Shown piece by piece: positions 10,901 through 41,514 of a stretch of 41,514 bases of DNA. A program made the translations under genes and the position numbers. The stretch covers positions 1 to 41,514 of the forward strand of contig DATLZI010000187.1 of NCBI GenBank assembly GCA_035574075.1, read 5' to 3'. The DNA comes from a bacterium. GTDB lineage: Bacteria; Sysuimicrobiota; Sysuimicrobiia; Sysuimicrobiales; Kaftiobacteriaceae. A model generated the notes under the pieces. That model did not search any database and was not told the DNA's origin. It worked only from the letters and a program-made list of their open reading frames with translations. How positions within the stretch are numbered: the first letter of the stretch is position 1; every line of letters begins with the position of its first letter.

Positions 10901-10933
10901 GGATGGGATATTCGCCGGGCCGCCGGGCCGGGC

Positions 10934-12460: not shown

Positions 12461-12470
12461 GGGAAGCCCC

Positions 12471-12953: not shown

Positions 12954-12966
12954 CGCCAGCTCCGGC

Positions 12967-15161: not shown

Positions 15162-15192
15162 GGCCGTCTCCTCCGTTACGGTCGGATGCCCG

Positions 15193-16419: not shown

Positions 16420-16422
16420 GGC

Positions 16423-17628: not shown

Positions 17629-17629
17629 G

Positions 17630-18262: not shown

Positions 18263-18378
18263 GATGAGCCGGCGGATCCGGTCCGCGACCTCTTCGTAAA
18301 CCTTGGTCCGGCGGACCGGCTCCAGCTCGCTGATGACCGGAGACGACGGTGTCGAGATTGTTGACCCGCCCGGTCAGA

Positions 18379-24022: not shown

Positions 24023-24451
24023 TCAGGAGCCCTCCGGCCGGAGGTGGGTCCGCAGGTGCGCCCAGATCAGCGGGCGTGCACTTTCCGGCTCGAAGGCCGG
24101 ATCGTACACCAGCTCGCGATCGAACGCCAGCGGCACCGCCAGCCGCCAGGGGCCGGCGAGGTCGGCGCGGATGGTCCGCGCGTCTTCCTCCAGCTGCACC
24201 GAGGCGCCCGGCGCCAGCTCGCCCGCCACCTCGACGACGATCTCCTGGAGGCGCTCGATACCGAGGAGGTTGTGCGCCACCTCCAGGGCGCGCTGCCAGG
24301 CGTCCGAGGCGCTGCGGCCGCGCACGGGCGCGCGGGTGAGGAGCCGTCCCGTGGCGATCTCGCGGATCGTCGCGCTGTAGCGCCGGTCGGCGTCGGGCCC
24401 CTCCACCGTCACCGTGAAGCGGCGGCCGAAGACGACGACCTCGTCAGCCAT
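24023..24451 (-). CDS. Hypothetical protein (142 aa), no recognisable domain
   Basis: ATG at 24449-24451 (MADEVVVFGRRFTVTVEG...). Overlaps the stop of the upstream gene by 8 nt (ATGGCTGA), suggesting translational coupling. Confidence 0.6.
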   Translation of the reverse strand: MADEVVVFGRRFTVTVEGPDADRRYSATIREIATGRLLTRAPVRGRSASDAWQRALEVAHNLLGIERLQEIVVEVAGELAPGASVQLEEDARTIRADLAGPWRLAVPLAFDRELVYDPAFEPESARPLIWAHLRTHLRPEGS

Positions 24452-25520: not shown

Positions 25521-25571
25521 CGTGGCTGACTCCGTTCCACGGGGGCCGGGGAGGCCCCTGCCCGGCGGAGC

Positions 25572-26564: not shown

Positions 26565-26792
26565 CCGTCCACACCCGCCCCGTCCGGCTTCTCCCTTGCC
26601 TGCCCGCAGGGCTGGACGATCACCACCGCAGGAGGGCCGATCGCGGTGCCGGGCGAGGCATCCCTTTCTGGATGAACCGGAGCAGGATTGTCTCGATGGC
26701 TGCAGAATGGTGAGACGGTTAGTTCCTACGCTGACACCTCGACTCCGGCCCTCGCTCCACCCTGTCGGAGATCACCTTCAGGAGGGATTCCA

Positions 26793-27782: not shown

Positions 27783-27824
27783 GCCGCGGCGTCTAGGCGG
27801 CCGGGGCGCGGGCACGGATGAGAT

Positions 27825-28997
27825 GTGTCCCGCGCCCTGACCGCCGGTTTCGCCGCCGCCGTCTCCCTGGCCGCGATCGCCGCCGGCCCCTGGATCCTCA
27901 GCGCGCCCGGCCCGGCCAGCAGCGAAGAGCCTCCCCGTCCCGCGGAGGAGGCGGCCCCGCCGTCTCCAGCCCGGCCGCCCCGCCCCGACGTGATCAAGGC
28001 GATCTACCTCACCTCCTGGAGCGCGGCCACCCCCAGCCGGGTGGCCCGGGCGCTCGAGCTCCTCGAGACCACGGAGCTCAACGCGGTGGTCATCGACGTC
28101 AAGGACTACACCGGGGCCGTCGCCTTCCGCACGGGGTCCCCCGCGGTCGCGGCGATGGGCGCGGAAGTGGGGCGGCTCGACCTCGGGGCGCTGGTCCGGC
28201 GCTTCCACGACGCGGGCGCGTACGTCGCGGTGCGGATCGCCGCCTTCCAGGACCACCACCTCTCCCGGCGCCGCCCCGACCTCGCCGTGCGCGATGCGCA
28301 GGGCGCGGTCTGGCGGGACAATCTCGGCATCGGGTGGGTGGATCCCGCCGCGCGGGAGGTGTGGGACTACCTGGTCGCGGTCGGGCGGGCGGCCGCGGCG
28401 GCGGGCGTGGACGAGCTGAACTTCGACTACGTCCGCTTCCCCTCGGACGGCAAGCTGGACGGCCTGCGCTACCCGTTCTTCGACGGCACGGTCGGCCGGC
28501 GGCGCACGCTGCAGCGCTTCTTCGAGCACCTCACCGTGGCGCTGCGCCCCACCGGCGCCGTGCTCTCCGCCGATCTGTTCGGCCTGACCACCGTGGCGGC
28601 GGACGACATGGGCATCGGACAGATCCTGGAGGACGCGCTGCTCTACTTCGACTATGTGGCGCCGATGGTCTACCCCTCGCACTACGCCCGGGGCTTCCTG
28701 ACCTTCGCGAACCCCGCCGCGCACCCCTACGCGGTGGTGCACTACTCGCTGCTGCGGGCGCAGGAACGCCGCCTGCGCCTGCGGCGGCAGCTGAGCGCGC
28801 TGGCCGCCGGCGGAGACGCGGGCGAGGTGACGCTCGCCCGGCTGCGGCCGTGGCTCCAGGCGTTCGACCTGGGAGCCAGCTATCCGCCCTCGGCGGTCCG
28901 GGAACAGATCCAGGCCGTGTACGACGCCGGCGGGGCCTCCGGCTGGTACCTCTGGAGCCCCGCCAACGTCTACGCCGCCGCCGCGCTCGAGAAGTGA
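27825..28997 (+). CDS. Putative glycoside-hydrolase-like protein (DUF4015 / GHL-type TIM barrel) with N-terminal signal or anchor
   Basis: 390 aa with NAVVIDVKDYTGAVAF, GWVDP, DELNFDYVRFPSDG and MVYPSHY. N-terminal hydrophobic segment, then a Pro/Ala-rich linker. Confidence 0.75.
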   Translation: MSRALTAGFAAAVSLAAIAAGPWILSAPGPASSEEPPRPAEEAAPPSPARPPRPDVIKAIYLTSWSAATPSRVARALELLETTELNAVVIDVKDYTGAVAFRTGSPAVAAMGAEVGRLDLGALVRRFHDAGAYVAVRIAAFQDHHLSRRRPDLAVRDAQGAVWRDNLGIGWVDPAAREVWDYLVAVGRAAAAAGVDELNFDYVRFPSDGKLDGLRYPFFDGTVGRRRTLQRFFEHLTVALRPTGAVLSADLFGLTTVAADDMGIGQILEDALLYFDYVAPMVYPSHYARGFLTFANPAAHPYAVVHYSLLRAQERRLRLRRQLSALAAGGDAGEVTLARLRPWLQAFDLGASYPPSAVREQIQAVYDAGGASGWYLWSPANVYAAAALEK

Positions 28998-29001
28998 CCC
29001 G

Positions 29002-29460
29002 CTAGCTCGCCCCCGCCAGCTTCGCGAAGAGCTGGATCTGGCCGTGGTGGTAGGCCGTGTGCATGAGCGACGTCGTGACGGCCCACTGCCGGGGTACCGC
29101 GCGGGCGCTGCCGCGGAACGGCACCTCCACGGTCTGGGCGAGATCGTCCGCCGTCAGGCTGGCCAGCACGCCGCGCGCCTCGGCCTGCGCGGCGCGCAGA
29201 TCGCTCACCAGCGGCGCTTTCGCCAGGCGCTCCCGTTCGAACTCGGCCGCGCGGTCGCGCATCACCGCCCGCCCGCCGACCACCTGCACGATCCAGTAGC
29301 GCTCCGAGCCCGCGATGTGGCGCAGCAGGATGCCGACCGTGTTCGCCAGGTTGGGGTGCCACCAGTTGATCGTCTCGTCGGTCATCGGCTCGACGAGCTG
29401 GTAGATGTCGTCGTGCACGCGGTCCAGCGCCTCGGCGAACGGAGCCACGAACGGGTCCAT
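29002..29460 (-). CDS. DinB-family protein
   Basis: ATG at 29458-29460 with AAGGAGG upstream. 152 aa with a DinB-like His triad context (LLRHIAGSERYW ... HTAYHHGQI). Confidence 0.85.
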   Translation of the reverse strand: MDPFVAPFAEALDRVHDDIYQLVEPMTDETINWWHPNLANTVGILLRHIAGSERYWIVQVVGGRAVMRDRAAEFERERLAKAPLVSDLRAAQAEARGVLASLTADDLAQTVEVPFRGSARAVPRQWAVTTSLMHTAYHHGQIQLFAKLAGAS

Positions 29461-29636
29461 GGAGACCTCCTTGACCAGGATGAGGAGAGAGTTCGCACCT
29501 CGCGGGCGGGCGCTCCTGTCCCGGTTGCGCCAGGGGCACCGGCGCTGGCCGAGACGCGCGCGCCCTCGCCGGGCGCCGGCCCGCCGGGCGCTTCTGTTAC
29601 CCCGTGAAGCGGACGCGGGGCCCAGGCGGCCGGCCT

Positions 29637-31085
29637 TCAGGGCTGGTAGCCGAGCAGGGGCCAGTAGACGATCGCCGCGAGCCAGGTGAGGGCGAGCAGG
29701 ACGAGCGAGGCGGGGATCCCCGACCGGAAGTAGTCGGCGATGGTGTAGTACTCGTACCCCATCGTGATCATCCCGGTCGGCGTCTGGGTCGGCAGCAGGA
29801 ATCCGGGCCCGGCTGTCATCACCACGACCATCCCGGTCCACACCGGGTTCAGCCCCCAGCCCTTCGCCAGCGTGAAGGCCAGCGGCAGCGCGGCGGCGAT
29901 CATCCCCAGGTTGTTCACGAAACCGACGCGGATCAGCAGGACGAGCGGCGCGATGACGAGCGCCACGACCTGCGGCGAGGGGCGGGCGATGACCCCCAGC
30001 GCTTCACGCGTCAGCCAGGCCCCGGCGCCGGAACGGTCGAGCGCGTTGGCCAGGGCCAGCGAGACGCCGAACAGGATGATCACGTTCCAGCGCACGGAGC
30101 CCAGGGCGCGCTCCCAGGAGAGGACGCGGATCCCGGGCAGCAGGAGGGCGAGCGCGCCGATCATCCCGGCCTGGGACGTCGTGATCCCCCAGCGCGGTCC
30201 CGCCACCCAGAGGAGGAAGATCACCGCGAAGACCGACAGCATCTTCCACTCGGGAACGGAGAGCGCCCCCAGGCGGCGCAGTTCCGCGGCGACGTAGTCC
30301 GCGCCGGCGGCCAGTTCGCCGCGCTCGGGCGGGAACTGCCACAGCAGCAGCCGCCAGATGGCGAGGGTGAAGACCACGACCAGCGGGTAGAACGCGGCCA
30401 GCCAGGCGAGGTACGTCCAGCGCGCGTCGATCAGGGTCCCGAAGGCGCCGGCCGCGTACACCGTGGCGCCGGCGGCGGTCATCAGCCCGATGCCGACCAT
30501 GATCGAGACGTGGGAGATCCCGATCAGCAGCGCCTTGGCGAAAGGCGACGAAGGCCGGATGCGCGCGGCCTCGATGATCCCGAGCACGACGGGCAGGATC
30601 ATCGAGGTGCGACCGGCCGCGGTCGGCACCATGAAGGCCAGGATGAGGACGGTGCCGAGCACGGCGAGGAGCACGAGGGGCGGACGATCGCCCGCGCGGT
30701 GCAGCAGGGCCAGGGCGATCCGGCGCCCGAGCCCCGTGTCGGCCATGGCCTGGGCCAGGATGAACGTCACGACCAGCAGCCAGACGAACTCCGTGCCGAA
30801 CCCGGCGACCGCCTCCTCGAACGGCATGACGCCCAGCACGGAGAGCACGGTGAGCAGCAGGAGCCCGGAGAGCGACGGATCCTGCACGCCGCTGGCCCAG
30901 AAGGCGACCGCGGCCAGGAGCCCCGCCAGGGCGAACGCTCCCTGGCGGGACAGCGCCGCGGGCAGCGGCGCCAGCGCGGCGACGAGGAAAGCCGCGCCGA
31001 AGACCGCCCACGGGATCCAGGCCAGCGAGGGGCGCGAGGCCGCCAGGTCATCCTGGAGCAGCGGCGATTGGGAACCCGTGGGCAT
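29637..31085 (-). CDS. DASS/SLC13-family anion (di/tricarboxylate or sulfate) permease
   Basis: 482 aa, polytopic. CitT/SLC13-like repeats (...MVPTAAGRTSMILPV... and ...VGFVNNLGMIAAALPLA...). ATG lies 16 nt after the stop of the preceding M29-like gene. Confidence 0.8.
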   Translation of the reverse strand: MPTGSQSPLLQDDLAASRPSLAWIPWAVFGAAFLVAALAPLPAALSRQGAFALAGLLAAVAFWASGVQDPSLSGLLLLTVLSVLGVMPFEEAVAGFGTEFVWLLVVTFILAQAMADTGLGRRIALALLHRAGDRPPLVLLAVLGTVLILAFMVPTAAGRTSMILPVVLGIIEAARIRPSSPFAKALLIGISHVSIMVGIGLMTAAGATVYAAGAFGTLIDARWTYLAWLAAFYPLVVVFTLAIWRLLLWQFPPERGELAAGADYVAAELRRLGALSVPEWKMLSVFAVIFLLWVAGPRWGITTSQAGMIGALALLLPGIRVLSWERALGSVRWNVIILFGVSLALANALDRSGAGAWLTREALGVIARPSPQVVALVIAPLVLLIRVGFVNNLGMIAAALPLAFTLAKGWGLNPVWTGMVVVMTAGPGFLLPTQTPTGMITMGYEYYTIADYFRSGIPASLVLLALTWLAAIVYWPLLGYQP

Positions 31086-31101
31086 CAGGAGCGGGCCGCC
31101 C

Positions 31102-32085
31102 TCACAGCCTGAGCTCGCCCTGCTCGAGGAGCACCGTCCGGTCGAGACGCAGGGTGGGCCGGAACATCATCCCGTCGAAGTGGGCCACCGCGCGTGTCGC
31201 GCCGCCGATGTTCGCGCTGGTCCCGATCCCGATGTGCACCGTCCCCAGCGCCCCGTGGTCCGTCCACCGTCCGGTGAGGGTGAGGATCGCGGGGTTCAGG
31301 CCGACCGCCAGCTGGGCGATGGTGTAGACCGCGGCGTCGCCCAGGGAAGCCCAGACCTTGCGGATCATCTCCGCCTCCGCCCCGCCCTCCACGCGCACGA
31401 TGCGGCCGGCCTCCACGGTGCAGACCACGGGGCTGCGCAGCAACCCGCCCAACCGCAGGTTCGGGATGCTGCCGTCGAAGACCAGGCGGCCTTCGACCTT
31501 CCCGTCCACGGGCGCGATGTTCGCCTCGATCCAGGGGAAGGCGGAGAACTTCCCGGGCCGGTCCAGGATGCAGTCGTGGGCGTTCCCCGTCCGGCCCCGG
31601 AGATCGAAGGCGCAGTCCGTGCCCGCCGGCGTGGTGAGGTGCGCGGTGGAGGCTCCCGTGAGCAGCTCGGCGACCCGCCGGCAGCGGGGCGACTCGGCCT
31701 CGAAGTCGGCCTCCGGCCCTCCGCGATAGAGCATCTCCGGCGTCACCATGGCGGGCAGCGAGAGCACCCGCGCGCCCTTCGCCAGCGCGTCGTGGACGGC
31801 GGCGGAGTGACTGATCGAGTAGCTCACGGGGGTGAGGACCACGTCCGCGGCCGCCATCGCCGCGGCGACCACCGCCGGGGGCTCGTCGCCGTCCACCTCG
31901 CGCGGCGTCATCACGGTGGTGACGACCTGGGGCGTCACCTCCAGGGCGGCCGCGGCCAGCGCCTCGCCTACGGTGAGGCTGACCTCGCCCGTGTCCGCGA
32001 CCACCACCACCTTCTCGCCGGACCGAACGCGCGCGCAGACCCGGATCACCTTGCGCGCGCCCTCGATCAACCCCGCGATCTGCAC
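31102..32085 (-). CDS. M29 aminopeptidase / NicX-like metalloenzyme, paralog 1
   Basis: GTG at 32083-32085 with AGAGGAGGG 6 nt upstream, 19 nt after the tctA stop. 327 aa with FPWIEANIAP, TVHIGIGTS and AHFDG (H...HxD). Confidence 0.75.
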   Translation of the reverse strand: MQIAGLIEGARKVIRVCARVRSGEKVVVVADTGEVSLTVGEALAAAALEVTPQVVTTVMTPREVDGDEPPAVVAAAMAAADVVLTPVSYSISHSAAVHDALAKGARVLSLPAMVTPEMLYRGGPEADFEAESPRCRRVAELLTGASTAHLTTPAGTDCAFDLRGRTGNAHDCILDRPGKFSAFPWIEANIAPVDGKVEGRLVFDGSIPNLRLGGLLRSPVVCTVEAGRIVRVEGGAEAEMIRKVWASLGDAAVYTIAQLAVGLNPAILTLTGRWTDHGALGTVHIGIGTSANIGGATRAVAHFDGMMFRPTLRLDRTVLLEQGELRL

Positions 32086-32104
32086 ACCGATCCCTCCTCT
32101 GGCC

Positions 32105-33619
32105 TCAGCCGCCCCCGCCGGCCATCTCCGGCGCGGCCGCCGCAAGGCGGCGGCGCAGGAACGAGGACAGCACCAGCAACAGCGTCAGACCAAGCAACGT
32201 TGCGGACAGCGGCCGCGTGACGAAGGTGAGCAGGCTGCCGTGCGAGAGCAGCAGCGCTTGCCGCGCGGACTCCTCGAGCGTGTTGCCGAGCACGAGCGCC
32301 AGCACCAGCGGCGCCGCCGGGTAGTCGAGCTTCATCATGATGTAGCCGAAGATCGCGAAGCCCAGCGCCAGCCAGGCTTCGAAGAGGTGGTTCTCCAGGC
32401 TGAAGGTGCCGATCACGGCCAGGGCGATGATCGAGGGGTAGAGGACCGGCTTGCGCAGGCGCAGGACGCTGACGAAGAGCGGGATGGCAAGCAGGTTGAG
32501 CAGGACCAGCAGGAAGTTGCTGACGTGCATGCTGGCGATGATGCCCCAGGCGAACTGCGGGTGTTGCTCGAAGAGCAGCGGGCCTGGCCGCAGCCCGAAG
32601 AGCATCAGGCCGCCCAGCATCACCGCCGTGGTGGCCGAGCCGGGCAGGCCGAGGGTCAGCAGGGGGACCATCGCCCCCACCGCCGCGGCGTTGTTGGCGC
32701 TCTCCGGGCCGGCCACCCCCTCGATCGCGCCCCGGCCGAAGCGGTCGGGATCGCGCGATGCGCGCTTCTCCACGGTATAAGAAATCATCGAGGCGGCCGT
32801 CGCCCCGGCCCCCGGCAGCATCCCCACGAGGAAGCCGATCACAGTGCCCCGCAGGATCGCCCATCGGCTGGCCAGCCAGTCCGCCGCCGCGGGCAACACC
32901 CCGCGCAGCGTGAACCGCGCGTCCGGCACCCGGTACGGGGCGACCTGATGCGCCGTGGCCAGGATCTCTGCGATCCCGAAGAGCCCGACCGCCACGGGGA
33001 TGAACTGCACGCCGTCGAGCAGCTTGAGCTGGCCGAAGGTGAAGCGGGGCAGCCCACTGATGAGATCGATGCCGACGGTCGACAGCCACAGCCCGAGCAG
33101 CACCGCGATGGCCCCCTTCAGCTTGTCCCGCCCCGTGAGGTAGACGGTCAGGCTGAACGCCAGGACGAGAAGGGCCGTGAACTCCGCCGGCCCGAAGGCC
33201 AGCGCCACGCGGGTCAGCGGGCGGGCGAGGAACATCAGGGCGGCGATGCCGGCCGTCCCGGCCAGGAACGAGCCGAAGGCCGCGATCCCCAGCGCCGCCC
33301 CGGCCCGCCCCTGGCGCGCCATCTCGTATCCGTCCAGCATCGTCATCACCGAGGACGACTCGCCGGGGATGCGCAGCAGCACGGAGGTGATCGTCCCGCC
33401 GTACATCGCGCCGTAGTAGATGCCGATGAAGGTGATCATCGAAGTGGCCGGGTCCAGGTCGAAGGTCACGGGCAGGAGGATGGCGATCGCCGCCGAGGGA
33501 CCGATCCCCGGCAGCACCCCGATCAGCTGGCCGATCACGACCCCGGTGGCCGCGGCCAGGAGGTTCACGGGCTGCAGCGCCACCTGGAAGCCGTTCAGCA
33601 GCAGGCGCAGGGTGTCCAC
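32105..33619 (-). CDS. tctA: Tripartite tricarboxylate transporter permease TctA (system 2)
   Basis: 504 aa with GVLPGIGP and YYGAMYGGTITSVLLRIPGE. GTG start lies 3 nt after the tctB stop. Confidence 0.9.
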   Translation of the reverse strand: MDTLRLLLNGFQVALQPVNLLAAATGVVIGQLIGVLPGIGPSAAIAILLPVTFDLDPATSMITFIGIYYGAMYGGTITSVLLRIPGESSSVMTMLDGYEMARQGRAGAALGIAAFGSFLAGTAGIAALMFLARPLTRVALAFGPAEFTALLVLAFSLTVYLTGRDKLKGAIAVLLGLWLSTVGIDLISGLPRFTFGQLKLLDGVQFIPVAVGLFGIAEILATAHQVAPYRVPDARFTLRGVLPAAADWLASRWAILRGTVIGFLVGMLPGAGATAASMISYTVEKRASRDPDRFGRGAIEGVAGPESANNAAAVGAMVPLLTLGLPGSATTAVMLGGLMLFGLRPGPLLFEQHPQFAWGIIASMHVSNFLLVLLNLLAIPLFVSVLRLRKPVLYPSIIALAVIGTFSLENHLFEAWLALGFAIFGYIMMKLDYPAAPLVLALVLGNTLEESARQALLLSHGSLLTFVTRPLSATLLGLTLLLVLSSFLRRRLAAAAPEMAGGGG

Positions 33620-33622
33620 CGC

Positions 33623-34078
33623 TTAGAACCCCCAGGGCCCCCGGGGGACGGGGACCGCCAGCCAGCGCACGAACATGAGGTAGAAGACCACCGGCACGAT
33701 AACGGCGGTCGACGCCGCGGAGCGCCACGACCCGCCGAGGAGCCGGACCAGCGCCAGCAGCAGGAGCGCCAGGCCGCCCAGCATCCCGACCACCGGGATG
33801 AGGAAGATCGCCGCCGCCGTGGCGGCGGCCGTCTCGAGCGCGACGGTCACCTCGCGGCGGGCGGCCGCGCGCTCCTCGGGCGCCGGATGCGCCGGCCCGG
33901 ACGCCGGCCGGGCCAGCAGCACAAGCGCGCAGAGGGCCAGGCCCGCGCCGATCCACAGCGGCGCGAAGCCCGGCCCGGGGATGCGGCCCATCCACAGGCC
34001 GAGCCGCACCGCCGTGATCATCGTGTAGACCGCAAACAGGAGGAGCAGCGCCCCCGTCAGATGATCCCACCGAGCCAC
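33623..34078 (-). CDS. tctB: TctB-family small membrane protein (system 2)
   Basis: GTG at 34076-34078 (VARWDHLTGALLLLFAVY...). 151 aa with 4 hydrophobic segments. The rest of track ORF 33623..35167 is off-frame shadow over tctC. Confidence 0.7.
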   Translation of the reverse strand: MARWDHLTGALLLLFAVYTMITAVRLGLWMGRIPGPGFAPLWIGAGLALCALVLLARPASGPAHPAPEERAAARREVTVALETAAATAAAIFLIPVVGMLGGLALLLLALVRLLGGSWRSAASTAVIVPVVFYLMFVRWLAVPVPRGPWGF

Positions 34079-34122
34079 GTCCGTCCCCCCGCCGCGTGGT
34101 CGCCGCGGTGCATCCTTCCGCT

Positions 34123-35097
34123 CTACTTGATCAGCCCGATCTCCCGGTAGAAATCGACGTACCGCTGGGCGACGGCTTCCACGGTGCGCTTCCACTCCGC
34201 CGGGCCCTGGCACATCGGGACGAGCATGTTGGCCTCGATGTACTCCTTCTGCCACTTCGGGCTGCGGCACAGCCGCTGGAAGGCGTTCCACATCGTCTGC
34301 ACGGCCTCGGCCGGCACGCCCGGGGGCATCGAGACCCCGCGGTACTGATCCCAGACGACGTCGTAGCCCAGCTCGCGGAACGTCGGGACGTCGGGCATGA
34401 TCGTCAGGCGCCGCGTCGAGGAGACGGCCAGGGCCCGCACCTTCTTCGCCCGGATCTGCTCGACCGCCTCCGCCGGGTTCAGCCACACCGACGAGACGTG
34501 GCCGCCGAGCATCGCCGTGAGGGCCGGGCCGCTGCCGCCGAACGGCACGTAGGTCATCTTGATCCCCGCGGCTTTCTCGAGCATCGCCGTGACGACGCGA
34601 TCGTCGGAGGCGATCGCCGAGCCGCCCACGCTGATCACCTCGGGCGTCGCCTTGCTCACCTTCACGATGTCCCCCACGGTGCGGTAGGCCGACTCGGCCC
34701 GAACGACGAGGAAGAACGTGTCCAGGGCCAGTCCGGCGAGCGGGGTGAAGTCGGTGACCTTGAACGGGGCCTGACTGACCAGGGGCGTGGTCCAGAAGCT
34801 GCCGCTGATCGTCGTCAGGACGTACGGGTCCCCCCGCTTGCTGAGGACGTAGCTCCACCCGACGGCCCCGCTGCCGCCGGGTTTGTTCGCGACGACGATC
34901 GGCACCGTGATGATCCGCTCCTCGGTCAGGATGCGGGCGATGGTCCGGGCCAGGATGTCGCTGCCGCCGCCCGCGCCGAACGGCACGACGAACTCGATCG
35001 GCTTGCTCGGGTAGGCCTGGCCGGACAGCGGAGCCGTAACCAGCAGGGCGACCAGCAGCCCCGCGACGGCGCCGCGGAGGATCCAGAAGACGCGCAT
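34123..35097 (-). CDS. tctC: TctC substrate-binding protein (system 2)
   Basis: ATG at 35095-35097 with GGAGGAGG 8 nt upstream. Gives signal peptide MRVFWILRGAVAGLLVALLVTAPLSG, then YPSKPIEFVVPFGAGGGSD. The alternative ATG at 35131-35133 overlaps the upstream stop (ATGA). Confidence 0.85.
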   Translation of the reverse strand: MRVFWILRGAVAGLLVALLVTAPLSGQAYPSKPIEFVVPFGAGGGSDILARTIARILTEERIITVPIVVANKPGGSGAVGWSYVLSKRGDPYVLTTISGSFWTTPLVSQAPFKVTDFTPLAGLALDTFFLVVRAESAYRTVGDIVKVSKATPEVISVGGSAIASDDRVVTAMLEKAAGIKMTYVPFGGSGPALTAMLGGHVSSVWLNPAEAVEQIRAKKVRALAVSSTRRLTIMPDVPTFRELGYDVVWDQYRGVSMPPGVPAEAVQTMWNAFQRLCRSPKWQKEYIEANMLVPMCQGPAEWKRTVEAVAQRYVDFYREIGLIK

Positions 35098-35129
35098 CGT
35101 GTCCACCTCCTCCGTGGTCTGCTCCCGCC

Positions 35130-36098
35130 TCATGGCACCTGGACGAGCACCTTGCGGCGCTCCACAAGGGTCCGGCCGTCCACGGTCACGGTCGGGTTGA
35201 GGATGATCGCGTCCACGTGGATCGCGCTCTCCACCAGCCCGCCGATCGTGTGGCTGTCGCCGATCCCGATGTGCACGACGCCGAGCAACACCTTGTCCTC
35301 GGCCATGTTGCCGCGCAGGCGCGACGCCGGGTTGGTGCCGATGGCGAACTCGGCGATGTTGCCCGCATTGGCGTCGGTGGCGATCAGCTCCCGGAAGACC
35401 TCGGCGCTGCGCCCCCCCTCCACCCGCACGATGCGCCCCCCGCGCACCTCGCAGCGGATGGGGGCGTCCAGGACGCCGACGTTGTCGATGGCGTGGTCGA
35501 AGACCACCACACCCTCGGCGGAGCCCTCCCGCGGCACGATGGGCGCCTCTCCGGTCGGGAAGGGCGTGAACGATCCCGGCTCGGTGGCGAAGCCGTCCAG
35601 GGTCAGCGCGGAGCGCCCGTCGATCCTGAGGTGCAGGTCCGTCCCCTCCGCGGAGGTGAGGTGCACGCTCGTCCCGGCGGTCAGCGCGGCGGCGATCTCC
35701 CTCGTCAGCCGGCGCACCGCGCGGTAGTCGGCGGTAGCCGCTCCCTCGGTCATGCTCTCCACGGTGACGCTGCGCAGCACCACGGCCCGCGCGCCCCGTG
35801 CGCTGGCGTCCCGCCGGGCGGTGGTGTGCGTGATGGAGTGCTTCACCGCCATCAGCATCACGTCGCTGGCCAGCATCGCGGCGGCCAGCACGCGGGGCGG
35901 ATCGTTCCCGTGCTGGGCGCGCGGATCCATGATCGCCAGGACGACGTCTCCGCCGCGCTCACGGGCCGCGTCAGCCAGCACGTCCGCGATCTCCCGGGTC
36001 GTCGTGTCGCCGATGACCAGGACGTGCTCGCCCGGCCGGAGGGCCACGCAGTGCTCGACCAGCATGCGGGCCGTGCGCATCATCGCCTCGCGGCTCAT
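35130..36098 (-). CDS. M29 aminopeptidase / NicX-like metalloenzyme, paralog 2
   Basis: 322 aa with FPTGEAPIVP, NIAEFAIGTNP, VVHIGIGDS and AIHVDAI (an E/E/H/H/D-like set). Confidence 0.8.
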   Translation of the reverse strand: MSREAMMRTARMLVEHCVALRPGEHVLVIGDTTTREIADVLADAARERGGDVVLAIMDPRAQHGNDPPRVLAAAMLASDVMLMAVKHSITHTTARRDASARGARAVVLRSVTVESMTEGAATADYRAVRRLTREIAAALTAGTSVHLTSAEGTDLHLRIDGRSALTLDGFATEPGSFTPFPTGEAPIVPREGSAEGVVVFDHAIDNVGVLDAPIRCEVRGGRIVRVEGGRSAEVFRELIATDANAGNIAEFAIGTNPASRLRGNMAEDKVLLGVVHIGIGDSHTIGGLVESAIHVDAIILNPTVTVDGRTLVERRKVLVQVP

Positions 36099-36103
36099 CC
36101 TCT

Positions 36104-36113
36104 CCCCCCCCCC
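36104..36113. repeat. C10 (G10 on the coding strand) homopolymer in the ribosome-binding region of M29-like paralog 2
   Basis: Minus strand reads TGA GGGACGTCC GGGGGGGGGG AGAGG ATG. Ten consecutive C at 36104-36113. Confidence 0.9.
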
Positions 36114-36122
36114 GGACGTCCC

Positions 36123-36902
36123 TCAGAGGACCCGAACCAGCCCTCCGTCCACCACGATCTGCTGCCCCGTGATGTAGCTGGCCCGCGGCGAGGCCAGGAA
36201 GACGATCACCGCCGCCACCTCCGCGGGATCCCCGTGCCGCCCCAGCGGCACCTCCGCGGCGTCGCGGGCCAGCGCCTCCTCCGCGGGCAGGCCCTGCCGG
36301 GCGGCTTCGGCGAGCAGGCGCGCCCGGCGGCGCTCGGAGAGCACCCGCCCCGGGGCGACGCAGTTCACCGCGATCTGCTGCGGGGCCAGCTCGTCGGCCA
36401 GGCTGCGGGTCAGGTTGGCGAGGGCGGCTTTCGCCGCGTTGCTCGGCGCCTGCCCGCGATGCGGCTGCTTCCCCGAGGCCGCGCCGACCAGGACGACGCG
36501 GCCGCCCGCGGGGATGAAGGGCAGCGCGCTGCGCACGAGGCGCACGGCCGAGAAGAAGTCGACCTCGAACGCCTCGCGCCACGTCGCCTCATCCACCTCG
36601 CGGAAGGTGCCGCGGAAGCTGCGGCCCACGGCGTCGATCACCGCGTCGAACTGCCCCAGGAAGTCGCGCGCCGCGCCGACGAGCCGCTCGACCTGCGCGG
36701 GATCGGTGATGTCGGCCGGGATCTCTCGCACCTCCCCGCCCCGCTGGCGCACCGCCTCCGCCGTCGCGCGCAGCGCCTCGGGATCGCGGCCGGCCACCGC
36801 CAGGCGCGCGCCTTCGGCGGCGAGCAGCTCCGCGGCGGCCCGGCCGATGCCGCGTGTCCCTCCCGCCAGGAGCACGCCCTTGCCGCGGAGGTGCAGCTCC
36901 AT
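36123..36902 (-). CDS. Short-chain dehydrogenase/reductase (SDR) family protein lacking the canonical catalytic Tyr
   Basis: 259 aa with the classical cofactor motif GGTRGIG and NCVAPG. The YxxxK position reads S-N-A-A-K. Confidence 0.85.
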   Translation of the reverse strand: MELHLRGKGVLLAGGTRGIGRAAAELLAAEGARLAVAGRDPEALRATAEAVRQRGGEVREIPADITDPAQVERLVGAARDFLGQFDAVIDAVGRSFRGTFREVDEATWREAFEVDFFSAVRLVRSALPFIPAGGRVVLVGAASGKQPHRGQAPSNAAKAALANLTRSLADELAPQQIAVNCVAPGRVLSERRRARLLAEAARQGLPAEEALARDAAEVPLGRHGDPAEVAAVIVFLASPRASYITGQQIVVDGGLVRVL

Positions 36903-36916
36903 TACGACATTACGAC
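36901..36916. repeat. Perfect tandem 8-nt duplication ATTACGAC x2 at the tctA/SDR junction
   Basis: Read directly from the sequence. The minus-strand copies GTCGTAAT-GTCGTAAT carry the tctA TAA stop and the SDR ATG respectively. Confidence 0.9.
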
Positions 36917-38421
36917 GGCGCCGACGCCGCGCTCACAGCCCGCGCCCGCCGGTCCTCGCGGAGCTGGCGGACGATCGGCCAGAGCAGGGTGAGGATGGCC
37001 AGGGCGAGCAGCGCCGCTGAGATCGGCCGGGTGAAGAAGACCCAGGGGTTGCCCAGGGCGATGAGCAGCGACCGGCGCAGGTTGACCTCGACCATGAAAC
37101 CCAGGACCAGCCCCAGCACCATGGCCAGGATGTTGAAGCCGTAGCGCCGCATCACGAAGCCCACCAGGCCCGTGGCCAGGACCACCCAGACCTCGAACAT
37201 GCTGTTGTTGATCGAGTAGGCGCCGACCAGAACCAGGCCGAGGATGCCGGCGTAGAGCAGCGGCGGCCGCACGTTGACCAGGGCGATGGAGGGCCGCAGG
37301 GCGAGGTAGCCGAGGACGAGCATCATGACGTTCGCCACCAGCATCCCAACGAACAGGCCGTAGACGATCTGCGGCGTGCGCTCGAACAACGCCGGGCCCG
37401 GCTGGATGCCGTGCAGCATCATCGCCGCCAGCATGATCGCCGCCGAGTTGCTGCCCGGGATGCCGAAGGTGAGCAGCGGGATCATCGCCGTGCCTGTGAC
37501 GACGTTGTTCGCCGTCTCCGGCGCGGCGACGCCTTCCAGCGCGCCGTGCCCGAACTCCTCGGGGGTCTTCGACCAGCGACGCGCCTCGTTGTACGAGATG
37601 AAGGCGGCGATGGCGCCGCCCCCGCCGGGGAGGAGCCCCTCGATCGTCCCCATCACGATCCCGATGAACGTCGCCACGCGCAGCTTCCACAGCTCGAGCA
37701 GGGTGGGCAGGTCGGTGCGGTACTTCCCGCGCACCTGCTCCCAGTTCGCGCCTTCGGCGATGCGGGTGAAGATCTCGGACACCGCGAACAGGCCGATCAT
37801 CCCGGCCACCAGGGCGACCCCGCCCAGCAGGTCGATCGTGCCAAAGGTGAAGCGCGGGGTGCCGGAGAACGGATCGGTCCCCGCGGTGGCCAGGATCAGG
37901 CCGAGCACCCCGGAGATCGCGCCCTTCACGAGGTCGCGGCCGACGAAGCTGCTGATCAGGGCCAGGCCGAAGACGCCCAGGGCGAAGTACTCCGGCGGCC
38001 CGAAGGCCAGAGCCACCCTCGAGAGGGGCACGGCCATGGCCACGAGGATGAAGACGCTGGCGATGCCGCCGATCGTGCCGGTGATCAGGGACACGCCGAG
38101 GGCCTTTCCGCTCTGGCCCTTCTTGTGCAGCTCGTAGCCGTCGATCACGGTGGCCGCGGCGCCCGGCGTGCCCGGCGTGCTGATCAGGATGGCGGTGATC
38201 GAGCCGCCGTACATCGCGCCGATGTAGACGCCGGCCAGCATCATCAGGGCCACCGCGGGATCCATGCCGAAGGTCAGCGGCAGGAGCAGGGCCATGGCGA
38301 TCGAGCCGGAGATCCCCGGCATCGCCCCGCCCAGGATGCCCCAGGCCACGCCGAGGAGCATCATCAGCAGGGACAGCGGCTGGAACGCGATCTGGGCGCC
38401 GAGGGCGAAGCGTTCGATCAC
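36910..38421 (-). CDS. tctA: Tripartite tricarboxylate transporter permease TctA (system 3)
   Basis: 503 aa with GAMPGISGS and YIGAMYGGSITAILISTPGTP. GTG start overlaps the tctB stop (GTGA). Confidence 0.9.
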   Translation of the reverse strand: MIERFALGAQIAFQPLSLLMMLLGVAWGILGGAMPGISGSIAMALLLPLTFGMDPAVALMMLAGVYIGAMYGGSITAILISTPGTPGAAATVIDGYELHKKGQSGKALGVSLITGTIGGIASVFILVAMAVPLSRVALAFGPPEYFALGVFGLALISSFVGRDLVKGAISGVLGLILATAGTDPFSGTPRFTFGTIDLLGGVALVAGMIGLFAVSEIFTRIAEGANWEQVRGKYRTDLPTLLELWKLRVATFIGIVMGTIEGLLPGGGGAIAAFISYNEARRWSKTPEEFGHGALEGVAAPETANNVVTGTAMIPLLTFGIPGSNSAAIMLAAMMLHGIQPGPALFERTPQIVYGLFVGMLVANVMMLVLGYLALRPSIALVNVRPPLLYAGILGLVLVGAYSINNSMFEVWVVLATGLVGFVMRRYGFNILAMVLGLVLGFMVEVNLRRSLLIALGNPWVFFTRPISAALLALAILTLLWPIVRQLREDRRARAVSAASAPS

Positions 38422-38864
38422 CGCAGCACCCCCATCGGCAGCAGGACGTGCAGGGCCCGGGCGAAGACGATGTACAGCACGGCGGTGATCCCCAGCGCCG
38501 TACCGACCAGCGTCAGCCAGGCGCGCAGCCCCAGGGCATAGATCACGCCGCCCAGCAGGATCGGGGTGGCGAGGAGGAAGCCGACCCGCGGCATGAGCAG
38601 GGCGTAGGCCACGAGCAGGCCGAGCACCGCGGCGAACGGCCCGCCGCGGATGGCAGGCGGGCGGGACGGGTCCGACCGTCCCGCCAGCGCCCGCACGACG
38701 AGGAGCACGGCCAGGACGCCGAGGGTCAGCGCCAGCAGGCGCGGGAAGGCCGCCGGCCCCAGCCGGTCGGAGGCGAAGCCACGGCGGATCAGGAACGACT
38801 GCTGCGCGTACAGCGCCGTGAACGCCAGCAGCGCCAGCCCGGTGATGAGATCCGCGCGCCGCAT
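38418..38864 (-). CDS. tctB: TctB-family small membrane protein (system 3)
   Basis: 148 aa with 4 hydrophobic segments. ATG lies 13 nt after the tctC stop, preceded by GGAGGCGG. Confidence 0.8.
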   Translation of the reverse strand: MRRADLITGLALLAFTALYAQQSFLIRRGFASDRLGPAAFPRLLALTLGVLAVLLVVRALAGRSDPSRPPAIRGGPFAAVLGLLVAYALLMPRVGFLLATPILLGGVIYALGLRAWLTLVGTALGITAVLYIVFARALHVLLPMGVLR

Positions 38865-38877
38865 CCGGAGCCGCCTC

Positions 38878-39837
38878 CTACTGGATCACGCCGATTTCCT
38901 TCATGTAGCGCCGCAGCGTCTGGTTCATCCGGTGCAGGTAGGCGTTGTACTGCTTGCTGTCCATGTAGGCCGGCAGCAGGTAGACGGAGGTGTAGTAGGC
39001 GCGGTAGGCGGGCTTGGCCAGAACCTGTTTGATGGCGTTCTCCCAGTACGCCACCGCCGCCGGGTCCATGCCCTTCGGCCCGAGCAGGCCGCGGAATTTC
39101 TCCACCACGATGTCCACACCCTGCTCCTTCGCCGTGGGGATGGTGGTGCCGGGCAGCCGCTGCGCGGTGAAGGAGTTCACCACCCGCACCTGGCCGGCCT
39201 GGACCTGGGCCGCCACCTCCGCGTACTCGCCGACACCCAGGTCGACGTGGCCGCCGAGCACGGCGAGCAGCAGGTCGCCGCCGCCCTCGAACGTCACTGG
39301 CTGCACCTGCACCTTGGCTACCTTCTGCAGCTGGTGGGCGATCATGTGCTCGACGGAGCCCGGCGTGGCGGCGCCGAAGCGCACCGTCCCGGGCCGCTGC
39401 TTGGCCGCGGCGATGATGTCGGTGAGCGTCTTCCACGGCGAGTCGGCCTTGACGTAGAGGATCATCGGGTCGAAGAAGACGTTGGCCACGGGCTGCAGGT
39501 CGAGGAAGGAGTGGGGCGTCTTGGTCAGGATCGGCGTCTGCAGCATCGTCGGCGTGCTGCCGTAGAGGATGTAGCCGTCCTTCGGACTCGTGGCGACGTA
39601 GGTCACGGCGCGCGCCGACGACCCGCCGCTGCGGTTCTCGACGACGATCGGCACGGGAACGATGCCCTCCAGGTGCTTGGCGAGGTTGCGCAGGAAGATG
39701 TCGCCCCCGGCTCCCGGACTGCTGTGCGTGACCAGGATGATAGGCTTGGTCGGATACGATCCCTGGCCGAGCGCGCCCACGGCGAGCACCAGCACGGCCG
39801 CGAGCGCCAGGACTGCCGCTGATCCCTTCACGGTCAT
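38878..39837 (-). CDS. tctC: TctC substrate-binding protein (system 3)
   Basis: 319 aa. Signal peptide MTVKGSAAVLALAAVLVLAVGALG, then YPTKPIILVTHSSPGAGGD. SD GGGGGAGGG upstream. Confidence 0.85.
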   Translation of the reverse strand: MTVKGSAAVLALAAVLVLAVGALGQGSYPTKPIILVTHSSPGAGGDIFLRNLAKHLEGIVPVPIVVENRSGGSSARAVTYVATSPKDGYILYGSTPTMLQTPILTKTPHSFLDLQPVANVFFDPMILYVKADSPWKTLTDIIAAAKQRPGTVRFGAATPGSVEHMIAHQLQKVAKVQVQPVTFEGGGDLLLAVLGGHVDLGVGEYAEVAAQVQAGQVRVVNSFTAQRLPGTTIPTAKEQGVDIVVEKFRGLLGPKGMDPAAVAYWENAIKQVLAKPAYRAYYTSVYLLPAYMDSKQYNAYLHRMNQTLRRYMKEIGVIQ

Positions 39838-39868
39838 GACCCTCCCCCTTTCGATGATGCTGCCCCCC

Positions 39869-40849
39869 TCATCCGTCCTTCGCGAACACCGGCTCCCCCC
39901 TATCGAGCACGACCTGATCGTCCAGCGTCACCGTCGGCCGCAGCAGGACGATGTCCAGGTGGATCGCGCTGTCCACCGTACCGGCCAGGCTGAGGTTGTC
40001 GCCGAGGGCGACGTGGGCCTGGCCCAGTTTCTTCTTGATCTCCCGGGACTTCGGGATCAGGCGGCAGGCCGGATTCGTGCCGAGGGCCAGCTCCGCCGCG
40101 AAGTTGCGGGCCCCCGGATCTTTGCGGGCCAGGATCGCGGCCAGCTGCTGGGCCTGCGCGCCGCCCTCCACCCGGGTGATCTGGCCGGCGCGGGCCTCCA
40201 GATGGAACGGCTCGGTGACCGGTCCGATCTTCTCGATCAGGTATGGGTTGACCAGGACGCCCTCCGTGCGCCCCTCCAGCGGGGCGATCGCCGCCTCGCC
40301 GTCCGGCAGGCCGGAGAAGGTGCCCGGCTCGCGGGCGAACCCGGAGAGGGCGAAGGCCGGCCGGCCAGTGAGGTCCAGGGTGAGGTCGGTGCCCTCCGGC
40401 GTGGTGATCCGCGCCCGCCGGGCGGCGGTGAGCAGGGCCACGCCCCGGCGCGTGATGCGGTCCACTTCGTCGTAATCGGCCGTCATCCCGCCCCGGACCA
40501 TCATCTCCTCGTCCACCTCGCGGATATTGCAGACCCGTGCGCCAGCGCGCAGGGCCTCCCGCTCGGCGTTGGTGTGGGTCATCGAATGGGACGTCTGCAC
40601 GATGATGCAGTCCGCTTCGCGCATCGCCGCGGCCACCGCCGCCGGCGGCTCCTCGCCGCCCATCTCCCGCGCCGGCATCGTCACGACCACGGTCTGCAGG
40701 CCGTACACCGCCGCCGTCGTGGTGAGCAGATCGGTGATCGTGCGCGGGCGCTCGAAGTCGGTGACGATGACCAGCCGCTCGCCGGGCCGCACGGCGAGAA
40801 CCTGCTCCATCATCCGGCGGGCGGTGCCGGCCATCGCTGCAGGGTTCAT
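39869..40849 (-). CDS. M29 aminopeptidase / NicX-like metalloenzyme, paralog 3
   Basis: 326 aa with LPDGEAAIAP, NFAAELALGTNP, AHVALGDN and AIHLDIV. ATG overlaps the regulator's stop (ATGA at 40846-40849). Confidence 0.8.
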   Translation of the reverse strand: MNPAAMAGTARRMMEQVLAVRPGERLVIVTDFERPRTITDLLTTTAAVYGLQTVVVTMPAREMGGEEPPAAVAAAMREADCIIVQTSHSMTHTNAEREALRAGARVCNIREVDEEMMVRGGMTADYDEVDRITRRGVALLTAARRARITTPEGTDLTLDLTGRPAFALSGFAREPGTFSGLPDGEAAIAPLEGRTEGVLVNPYLIEKIGPVTEPFHLEARAGQITRVEGGAQAQQLAAILARKDPGARNFAAELALGTNPACRLIPKSREIKKKLGQAHVALGDNLSLAGTVDSAIHLDIVLLRPTVTLDDQVVLDRGEPVFAKDG

Positions 40850-41514
40850 CGGGCCCTCCGCAGCCCGCCGTTGCGGCGCTGCTCGATCAGCTGGGCGCGC
40901 GCCGCGCGCCAGGCGTGCATGATGTGCTCCTCCACGGCGGCGCGCGCGCCCGCCGCGTCGCCGCGCTCGATCAGGCGGACGATCGTCTTGTGCTCGGCGA
41001 TGGACCGCGAGCGCCGACCGGGGTAGGAGAGCGACTCGACGCGCAGCAGGACAATGCGGTCGCGCAGGTTGGCGATCAGCGTCTGCAGCAGGGCGTTGCC
41101 GCAGCCCGCGGCGATCTCGTCGTGGAAGGCGTTGTTCGCGGAGAGCACGGCGGCCGGCTGCCGGCGGGCCAGGGCGCGCTCGGCCTCGGCGATCTGCGCG
41201 CGCAGCCGCTCCACCGCCGCCTCGGTGGCGCGCGCCGTGAACAGCGCCGTGGCCTGGCCTTCCAGGGCGGCGCGGGTCTCGTAGAGCTGGCGCGCGCCGT
41301 CCAGGGTGGGCCGCGTCACGGTCGGCCCCTTGTAGGGCACCGTGGTGATCAGACCCTCCAGCTCGAGCTTGCGCAGCGCCTCGCGGATCGGCGTGCGGCT
41401 CACCCCCAGGCGGCTGACCAGCTCGCGCTCGCGCAGCCGCTGGCCGGGCTGGAAGCGCCCGATGAGGATCGCCTCGCGCAGCTTGCGGAAGACCAGCTCC
41501 CGCGCCGGCAGGTT
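40846..41514 (-). CDS. GntR-family regulator with FCD domain, 5'-partial (runs off the right edge)
   Basis: The frame is open to 41514. It reads NLPARELVFRKLREAILIGRFQPGQRLRERELVSRLGVSRTPIREALRKLE, then an FCD-like domain. The track start at 41403 is an internal GTG inside the HTH. Confidence 0.85.
   Translation of the reverse strand, partial: NLPARELVFRKLREAILIGRFQPGQRLRERELVSRLGVSRTPIREALRKLELEGLITTVPYKGPTVTRPTLDGARQLYETRAALEGQATALFTARATEAAVERLRAQIAEAERALARRQPAAVLSANNAFHDEIAAGCGNALLQTLIANLRDRIVLLRVESLSYPGRRSRSIAEHKTIVRLIERGDAAGARAAVEEHIMHAWRAARAQLIEQRRNGGLRRAR

Follow-up and report, generated by a model that had tools for sequence, protein, structure and literature searches.

Three M29/NicX-fold proteins among carboxylate importers in a conserved bacterial gene array

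Introduction

What would a bacterium do with three related M29/NicX-fold proteins, each encoded immediately beside an uptake system for carboxylated solutes? The question is raised by contig DATLZI010000187.1 (assembly GCA_035574075.1), a 41.5-kb piece of a Sysuimicrobiota metagenome-assembled genome (MAG) with a G+C content of ~72%, whose full length of 41,514 nucleotides was analysed and is called here the window. An initial annotation, made from the letters of the window, had read positions 29637-41514 as a single compact array of twelve genes on the minus strand, headed by a GntR regulator and composed of three modules, each pairing an enzyme of the M29/NicX type with an importer. Our answer, which we hold with moderate confidence, is that this region makes up most of a single conserved operon, probably polycistronic, for the catabolism of imported polycarboxylic acids.

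A compact array of twelve genes

Third-position G+C and Pfam scans recover the twelve minus-strand genes in the order first proposed (Table 1), and start-codon analysis agrees with the tight packing described for them, the junctions ranging from overlaps of 4 nt to a gap of 44 nt. Two complete tripartite tricarboxylate transporter (TTT) systems are present, both in the order C-B-A and with every subunit over its Pfam cut-off, together with a DASS/SLC13-family symporter, a short-chain dehydrogenase/reductase (SDR), a regulator and the three M29/NicX-fold proteins, which we call M29L-1, M29L-2 and M29L-3. Two of the starts call for a choice. TctC_a could begin at either of two ATG codons, of which ATG 35097, with its strong Shine-Dalgarno sequence, appears the more likely. 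The longest open reading frame (ORF) of M29L-1 opens at TTG 32145 and would overlap TctA_a by 41 nt, but judging from the GGAGG upstream and from a resulting length of 327 residues, as in the orthologues, translation almost certainly starts at GTG 32085. Consensus scans for promoters and terminators inside the array returned none over the shuffled expectation and were uninformative; a single transcript across it is probable.

At its upstream end the array runs into the end of the contig. The ORF of the regulator is open to base 41514, with 222 codons present and ~6 missing relative to a 228-aa orthologue (locus L001, below). It has the architecture of the GntR/FadR subfamily, an N-terminal winged helix followed by a C-terminal FCD domain, with the helix-turn-helix domain partial and clipped at the window end. 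Since this gene is cut, the head of the array is not readable from the window.

NCBIfam gave no match for the three M29L proteins or for either TctC, and no model at cut-off for the SDR, whose nearest solved structures are generic SDR/FabG proteins. Among solved structures, the best relatives of TctC_a and TctC_b are TctC/Bug proteins, all of them distant.

Table 1. Genes of the twelve-gene array, its surroundings and a second array in the window. Positions are those of the window; junctions are with the next gene downstream.
Feature	Position	Strand	Junction	Evidence and remarks
GntR-family regulator with FCD effector domain	40846..41514	-	4-nt overlap (ATGA)	PF07729 FCD 99.7 bits and PF00392 GntR, on partial ORF
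M29L-3, M29/NicX-fold metalloenzyme, 326 aa	39869..40849	-	31-nt gap	PF02073 36.0 bits; ligand pattern H-E-E-H-H-D
TctC_b, periplasmic substrate-binding protein of TTT, 319 aa	38878..39837	-	13-nt gap	PF03401 140 bits
TctB_b, small TTT membrane subunit, 148 aa	38418..38864	-	4-nt overlap (GTGA)	PF07331 76.5 bits
TctA_b, large TTT membrane subunit, 503 aa	36910..38421	-	7-nt gap	PF01970 481.5 bits
SDR, 259 aa	36123..36902	-	24-nt gap	PF13561 187 bits
M29L-2, M29/NicX-fold metalloenzyme, 322 aa	35130..36098	-	ATGA overlap, or 32-nt gap with TctC_a start at ATG 35097	PF02073 73.3 bits; ligand pattern H-E-E-H-H-D
TctC_a, TTT substrate-binding protein	34123..35133	-	44-nt gap	PF03401 129 bits; start ATG 35133 or ATG 35097
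TctB_a, small TTT membrane subunit, 151 aa from GTG 34078	33623..34078	-	3-nt gap	PF07331 61.5 bits
TctA_a, large TTT membrane subunit, 504 aa	32105..33619	-	19-nt gap with M29L-1 start GTG 32085	PF01970 516.8 bits
M29L-1, M29/NicX-fold protein, 327 aa from GTG 32085	31102..32085	-	16-nt gap	PF02073 17.2 bits; PF26233; ligand pattern H-E-Q-H-H-D
DASS/SLC13-family anion:cation symporter, 482 aa	29637..31085	-		PF00939 199 bits (cut-off 27); TIGR00785 200.8 bits (cut-off 198.6)
Short ORF, co-directional with the array	28970-29539	-		DinB-like by eye; no Pfam match
DUF4015 (putative glycosyl hydrolase) gene, convergent	27822-28997	+
PdxA-like gene	~25530-26564	+
GntR/FCD regulator, second array	17630-18373	-
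4Fe-4S-domain protein, second array	16423-17649	-
2-oxoacid:ferredoxin oxidoreductase alpha-like subunit, second array	15193-16422	-
2-oxoacid:ferredoxin oxidoreductase beta-like subunit, second array	14127-15218	-
TctC, second array	12967 to ~13990	-
TctB, second array	12471-12995	-
TctA, second array	10934-12520	-
Lactate-permease-family gene, second array	9308-10933	-

Recurrence of the enzyme-importer pairing

Is the pairing of these enzymes with importers more than a chance arrangement? One genome per GTDB species was scanned with a ten-sequence alignment, which biases the sample toward M29L-2- and M29L-3-like sequences; the best 78 loci of 200 confirmed hits were kept and annotated with small hidden Markov models (HMMs) built from the window's own proteins, and for the Neorhizobium and Niallia plasmid records ORFs were called anew. 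A TctC or TctA gene lies within 300 bp of 45 of the 111 homologues. The midpoint of a TctC gene falls within 1 kb of the homologue in 29 of 77 loci, a density of 1.99 per 10 kb, against 0-0.22 per 10 kb at distances of 3-10 kb; the density of TctA peaks at 2-3 kb, as expected from the fixed order M29L, TctC, TctB, TctA. The enzyme-TTT pairing exceeds chance.

At least nine bacterial and haloarchaeal lineages show this adjacency to TctC or TctA. They include the window's own group (CSP1-3, 'Armatimonadota' and Sysuimicrobiota-labelled MAGs), many haloarchaea, a Neorhizobium plasmid, Gracilibacter, an NC10-related MAG and several Desulfobacterota- or Pseudomonadota-type MAGs. In Ancylobacter the arrangement is reduced to a minimal module of TctCBA, M29L and GntR, and the M29L-3 clade is TTT-adjacent in ~15 loci, Gracilibacter among them. 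Other importers of carboxylates take the same place elsewhere: one homologue stands beside a TRAP system on a Salipiger plasmid and others beside SLC13 permeases. The linkage is not universal, since further clades lie beside Opp-type ATP-binding cassette (ABC) transporters or within clusters of cyclase-type, CN-hydrolase and molybdenum hydroxylase genes. Its recurrence in many bacteria and in haloarchaea nevertheless argues that the pairing of an M29-like enzyme with TctC is not a chance arrangement. In the literature searched we found no description of an M29/NicX-like enzyme paired with a TTT system, in keeping with the remark of the initial annotation that no characterised pathway joins this enzyme family to TTT or DASS transport.

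A large branch of the M29/NicX fold

What are the enzymes themselves? PF02073 (Peptidase_M29), whose gathering score is 27 bits, accepts M29L-2 and M29L-3 and leaves M29L-1 below threshold. In precomputed annotation, the family PF26233 'NicX' is assigned to M29L-2 (P0001), to the M29L-3 orthologue in L001 and to M29L-1 (P0259), for which it is the only family match. A profile of 24 homologues matches NicX, the 2,5-dihydroxypyridine 5,6-dioxygenase of Pseudomonas putida, over its full length (E 1.7e-34), and the aminopeptidases PepS, AmpT and AmpS over the C-terminal half only (E 1e-11 to 1e-15). The AlphaFold2 (AF2) model of M29L-2, with a predicted local distance difference test (pLDDT) score of 96.3, has the two-domain fold of NicX; in a Foldseek search it reaches a template-modelling (TM) score of 0.83 with NicX 7CN3 (E 1e-27), 0.63-0.75 with M29 aminopeptidases and 0.56 with CgnE.

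The family is large, with 2,477 clusters at 50% identity (E<=1e-30), and in a neighbour-joining tree the three paralogues of the window fall into three separate clades, each with TTT-adjacent members of other taxa. All three enzymes belong to a large branch of the M29/NicX fold that is uncharacterised. Conservation is unusually high in the M29L-1 clade (proteins P0259-P0377), with identities of at least 70% among MAGs catalogued as Armatimonadota, NC10/Methylomirabilota and Bacillota; its source labels are inconsistent, ranging from 'hypothetical' to 'aminopeptidase T' and '2,5-dihydroxypyridine 5,6-dioxygenase'. When given automatically to M29L-type genes, the labels 'aminopeptidase' and '2,5-dihydroxypyridine dioxygenase' are probably wrong.

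Two peculiarities of the family deserve mention. Domain fusions among its longer members were uninformative except for P0109, a metagenomic protein of 555 aa that joins a PF26233 homologue to a formiminotransferase domain (FTCD_N, residues 271-443); the fusion may hint, in Rosetta-stone fashion, at substrates of the N-substituted glutamate type. Loci of the Atribacterota, Caldatribacterium and 'Profundicultor' (L057, L058, L061-L065, L077 and L079) carry tandem M29L pairs, in which the upstream copy scores ~90-130 bits against ~290, recalling the duplicated and diverged partner in CgnB/CgnE.

An M29-type ligand set in place of the NicX iron site

Nearness in fold to NicX raises the question of whether its catalytic site is shared. 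NicX binds one Fe(II) through His265, Ser302, His318 and Asp320, and positions its substrate with Leu104/His105, Glu177 and His189 (PMC7910607). In our alignments the M29L proteins keep the His and Asp at 318 and 320 and carry Glu (Gln in M29L-1) at 265 and His at 302, so that two of the four iron ligands differ and the mononuclear set of NicX is absent from the window proteins. Of the residues that position the substrate, His105 is kept, within an 'HT' motif, Glu177 is replaced by Leu and His189 by Pro or Ala. Where NicX has Phe194, the M29L proteins have an extra conserved Glu in a PxGE motif.

The pattern that emerges is the Glu/Glu/His/His/Asp dinuclear set, all five residues of which are found in M29L-2 and M29L-3, each aligned with its counterpart in PepS and AmpT. 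In M29L-1 the second, bridging-type Glu is replaced by Gln. Among the locus homologues, H-E-E-H-H-D occurs in 92 of 111 and H-E-Q-H-H-D in 17, which make up the M29L-1 clade.

Homologues are frequent in strict anaerobes, namely Atribacterota, Methanosarcinaceae, Desulfobacteraceae, Thermodesulfobacteriota and Halanaerobiaceae, which makes an O2-dependent reaction unlikely as the general function of the family. With the M29 dinuclear ligands kept, the iron site of NicX absent and anaerobic hosts common, a non-oxidative step is more likely than a ring-cleaving dioxygenation, and judging by these conserved positions the chemistry of the M29L proteins is probably hydrolytic. The suggestion of dihydroxypyridine-type N-heterocyclic carboxylates as substrates, one of two offered by the initial annotation, loses ground on both counts.

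Neighbouring genes and the class of substrate

If the enzymes hydrolyse imported compounds, their neighbours may tell which. All genes within 5 kb of a homologue were clustered and then identified from Pfam, NCBIfam and the record annotation. The recurrent ones encode SDR proteins (23 loci), DASS permeases (16), MmgE/PrpD proteins (13), enolase-superfamily proteins (7) and dehydrogenases of the tartrate/isocitrate family (6). In eight haloarchaeal loci, a pair of divergent M29L genes encloses TcuA, over its equivalog cut-off, and a PrpF-like isomerase. Near M29L in Gracilibacter (L040) are genes for aconitase-family subunits and malate dehydrogenase, and in two delta-type MAGs those for an amidase and a lyase of the fumarase/aspartase superfamily. 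MmgE/PrpD proteins are dehydratases, decarboxylases and epimerases of acids that are not CoA-activated (PMC9875883). These recurrent neighbours act on free di- or tricarboxylic or aminopolycarboxylic acids, and they point to free di- and tricarboxylic acids rather than to small acidic peptides. Regulators of the FCD-type GntR kind typically sense carboxylates.

Two layouts illustrate the range of contexts. On a plasmid of Haladaptatus pallidirubidus (L091, 317-9960), one strand carries an SLC13 permease, TctA, a TctB-like gene, TctC and a Gln-type M29L, and the opposite strand, divergently, TcuA (tricarballylate dehydrogenase), the PrpF-like isomerase, a Glu-type M29L and an IclR regulator; the layout is repeated in L034, L038, L039, L042, L044, L046 and L049. 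A TTT-free clade, ~50% identical to M29L-2, heads a different conserved run. In L083 (8001-16383) it comprises a cyclase of the kynurenine-formamidase type, a glyoxalase-fold protein, a CN-hydrolase, an SDR and two molybdoenzymes of the xanthine-dehydrogenase family; similar layouts occur in L014, L015, L018, L019, L025-L029 and L033, often with an M24/creatinase-like gene and an Opp-type ABC system upstream.

Conservation and build of the array

How much of the array is shared by relatives, and how did it come together? The same order of twelve genes occurs in loci L001, L005 and L006 of related MAGs, and the M29L-2 orthologue of L001 is 81% identical. Upstream in L001, a gene of the MmgE/PrpD family and one of the isocitrate-dehydrogenase family run in the same direction and enter the GntR gene by a 4-nt overlap. 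The dehydrogenase is a tartrate dehydrogenase (TDH), with 530 bits to TIGR02089 against an equivalog cut-off of 470, and the PrpD-like protein is nearest, among solved structures, to iminodisuccinate (IDS) epimerase (E 3e-58) and cis-aconitate decarboxylase (CAD). By tblastn, the PrpD-like gene lies upstream of M29L-3 and TctCBA in at least ten related MAG loci and TDH in at least nine, with GntR detected between TDH and M29L-3 in most; in L045 the PrpD-like gene directly precedes M29L-3, with no match to TDH or GntR. The description of the array as headed by GntR is therefore not supported, since in relatives the PrpD-like and TDH genes precede it co-directionally.

A short form, made up of M29L-3, TctCBA, SDR and DASS without the middle part, is found in L045, L069 and L072. 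Elsewhere, members of the M29L-1 clade stand directly downstream of TctA (L093 and L094) or adjoin TctC (haloarchaea). From these arrangements, the twelve-gene form probably arose by insertion of a block of M29L-2, TctCBA and M29L-1 between SDR and DASS; as the short form in relatives makes the middle block resemble an insertion, DASS would not be the ancestral partner of M29L-1. The compact array is real and conserved whole in the three relatives, but its division into three enzyme-importer modules is doubtful, M29L-1 and DASS probably not being an ancestral pair.

The components of the array have long diverged. The three M29L proteins are mutually 38-41% identical, TctC_a and TctC_b 31%, and TctA_a and TctA_b 42%; by these values the three paralogues and the two TTT sets are old, and such low identities make different substrates likely. 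A recent triplication as the origin of the three M29L genes was considered and rejected on account of the same identities and of the three separate clades.

At the edges of the array, the DUF4015 gene downstream of DASS is also found there in L005 and L006, and it probably marks the 3' end. The short co-directional ORF of Table 1 lies ~100 nt downstream of DASS. In L001 a PdxA-like gene diverges from the upstream PrpD-like and dehydrogenase genes; the PdxA-like gene of the window shares 41% identity with this flanking PdxA of the relatives.

A proposed catabolic operon and its alternatives

We favour a reading in which the two distinct TTT systems and the DASS symporter would import substrates that bear carboxylates, and each ~325-aa M29/NicX-fold protein, genetically coupled to TTT, would catalyse the first cytoplasmic step on the imported compound. 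This step would probably be metal-dependent and non-oxidative, at a dinuclear M29-type site, most likely the hydrolytic cleavage of an amide, ester or lactone bond within a conjugate of a di- or tricarboxylic acid. The acid so released would be processed by the SDR, the IDS-epimerase/CAD-like MmgE/PrpD protein and tartrate dehydrogenase, and the FCD-domain GntR regulator would sense a carboxylate effector. Minimal modules of TctCBA, M29L and GntR would fit a hydrolase that releases two common metabolites.

Several points weigh against this reading. The chemistry is deduced from the conservation of ligands in a branch with no characterised member, and in both fold and sequence the M29L proteins are nearer to NicX than to the M29 peptidases. 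Their His/His/Asp(+Glu) set could hold a single Fe(II). M29L-1, one carboxylate ligand short, may be catalytically different or inactive, as suggested by the precedent of CgnE, an M29-derived paralogue with lost ligands (PMC10070186). The survey relied on small HMMs of our own and was confined to the top 78 among 200 confirmed genome hits; many of these 78 loci are phylogenetically related, and the host genome is rich in TTT, with three systems in the 41.5-kb window. Finally, the nearest TTT-free relatives of M29L-2 (L083 and L004) lie in clusters suggestive of N-heterocycle catabolism, with molybdenum hydroxylases, a cyclase/formamidase-type protein, a CN-hydrolase and an amidohydrolase.

A wider claim can be made only tentatively, and we rate it as clearly less probable than the operon itself. 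The E-E-H-H-D branch, which is most of PF26233, might constitute a hitherto unrecognised class of cytoplasmic enzymes whose substrates are polycarboxylic acids or conjugates of these, and which evolved together with the TTT, TRAP and DASS importers of Bacteria and haloarchaea. Candidate reactions would be the hydrolysis of amides or lactones of the citryl, aconityl, tartryl or succinyl type, or a step of the hydratase or decarboxylase type. If this were true, the window would hold a three-enzyme version of a new tricarboxylate-type catabolic pathway, with the Gln-variant M29L-1 as a specialised partner.

Could the enzymes instead be aminopeptidases or dipeptidases of the M29 type, acting on imported small acidic peptides or amino-acid conjugates (Asp/Glu-rich, gamma-glutamyl or peptidoglycan-derived)? 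The complete M29 ligand set of M29L-2 and M29L-3, and their scores above the PF02073 threshold, would suit such a role, as would the Opp/Dpp-type ABC systems (~10 loci), the OPT transporter and the M24, M20 and M19 peptidases found next to other members of the family, and the one homologue fused to formiminotransferase, a domain active on N-substituted glutamate. The window proteins, however, are ~85 residues shorter than M29 peptidases, and the recurrent neighbours are polycarboxylate enzymes and not genes of peptide metabolism. The enolase-superfamily neighbours could be dipeptide epimerases, but they best match acid-sugar dehydratase or cycloisomerase models, all under cut-off. Moreover, CgnB, an M29-derived protein with a dinuclear Zn site, shows no aminopeptidase activity, and its co-occurring paralogue CgnE has lost ligands; both lack much of the N-terminal dimer-interface region of the M29 peptidases (PMC10070186). 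By this precedent an intact dinuclear site is no proof of peptidase activity, and we regard a peptidase role as unlikely, although it is the best of the rivals.

Less probable still is that the three enzymes are Fe(II) ring-cleaving dioxygenases, as NicX is, for hydroxylated N-heterocyclic carboxylates (nicotinate-, picolinate- or dipicolinate-like) imported by TTT and DASS. Among solved structures NicX matches best in both sequence and fold, the proteins are listed in Pfam under its name, and three of its active-site residues (His105, His318 and Asp320) are conserved. The ~50% identical relatives of M29L-2 in L083 and L004 stand beside hydroxylases of the xanthine-dehydrogenase family, a cyclase/formamidase-type protein and a CN-hydrolase, a gene set that resembles a sequence of ring cleavage, deformylation and deamidation. 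Against these resemblances stand the two exchanged iron ligands, the missing Glu177 and His189, the Glu of a second M29 metal site where NicX has Phe, and the spread of the family among strict anaerobes. No gene of pyridine-ring catabolism (hydroxylase, N-formylmaleamate deformylase or maleamate amidase) was found in the window or in the arrays of its relatives, which have PrpD-like, tartrate dehydrogenase and SDR genes instead.

That the adjacency has no functional meaning, three unrelated units being packed in a TTT-rich host, or that one or more M29L copies are non-catalytic binding proteins like CgnE, is the least probable account: the three TTT systems of the window, the bridging-type carboxylate lost in M29L-1, the degraded metal site known from the CgnB/CgnE pair and the insertion-like middle block are outweighed by the same adjacency with fixed geometry in distant phyla and haloarchaea, by the strong constraint implied by at least 70% identity in the M29L-1 clade across phyla, and by junctions of at most 44 nt throughout the array.

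A second array in the window and significance

The window holds a second array of the same architecture, also on the minus strand (Table 1), in which a GntR/FCD regulator is followed by a 4Fe-4S-domain protein, two subunits resembling a 2-oxoacid:ferredoxin oxidoreductase, TctC, TctB, TctA and a lactate-permease-family gene. A 775-aa minus-strand ORF (24444-26771) was discarded as a high-G+C artefact; only its C-terminal part, DUF2652 and SRPBCC/polyketide-cyclase-like, matches Pfam.

Most TTT systems have no known substrate, and PF26233 has a single characterised member, NicX, whose active site is not common to most of the family. The conserved coupling across domains of life connects the M29L proteins with importers of carboxylates and with PrpD-like, TcuA, PrpF and tartrate-dehydrogenase partners, and offers a handle both on TTT substrates and on the function of PF26233 enzymes. 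The ligands of linked TctC proteins would nominate M29L substrates, and the product of an M29L enzyme would reveal a new entry of di- or tricarboxylates into central metabolism. The array is thus a good lead for enzyme discovery and for TTT deorphanisation.

Comparison with known systems

How do these proteins and their array compare with systems already described? With NicX (PDB 7CN3; PMC7910607) the M29L proteins share the two-domain fold, a similar length, the best sequence match among solved structures, membership of PF26233 and, besides His105, His318 and Asp320, a GxR motif. They differ from it in an identity of only ~20%, in the Glu/Gln at 265, the His at 302 and the extra Glu at Phe194, and in a genomic context without nic-type genes. 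With the M29 peptidases (AmpT 2AYI, AmpS 1ZJC and PepS 4ICQ) they have in common the C-terminal catalytic domain and the Glu/Glu/His/His/Asp ligands. However, the window proteins have 322-327 residues against ~410, sequence alignment covers only residues 149-310 of the query, structural similarity is lower (TM only 0.63-0.75) and M29L-1, with Gln for Glu, stays under the PF02073 cut-off.

CgnB and CgnE of crocagin biosynthesis (PDB 6ZSU; PMC10070186) are likewise short M29-derived proteins, of ~300 aa, and the coexistence of CgnB with a paralogue of degraded site recalls the E-type and Q-type M29L copies in one cluster. The M29L proteins are nevertheless far more distant from them in structure (TM 0.56), and CgnB and CgnE act on the precursor of a ribosomally synthesised and post-translationally modified peptide (RiPP) in a biosynthetic cluster, not beside carboxylate importers.

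On the side of transport, both systems of the array have the three canonical subunits in the C-B-A order of characterised TctCBA transporters, and their TctC proteins match solved structures of TctC/Bug proteins, a group whose characterised members include Bug27, BugD, BugE, AdpC and TphC; being distant from every TctC of known ligand, they allow no ligand to be transferred. At the level of gene clusters, the closest parallels are the itaconate/methylsuccinate cluster PA0878-0886 of Pseudomonas aeruginosa, with its putative transporter PA0884-PA0886 (PMC9875883), and the tricarballylate TcuA system. Published clusters centred on MmgE/PrpD contain no M29/NicX-fold enzyme, and the array, unlike those of the PA0878-0886 type, has no CoA-transferase, hydratase or lyase genes. 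Nonetheless, it follows the logic of these systems, in which genes for an importer are combined with an MmgE/PrpD protein resembling IDS epimerase and with small accessory enzymes that broaden the range of substrates, and the link to the tricarballylate system is direct in haloarchaea, where TcuA and PrpF sit between two M29L genes. Viewed in this company, the array is a substrate-specific uptake and catabolism operon of a familiar kind, with an uncharacterised M29/NicX-fold branch at its core, and is no categorically new phenomenon.

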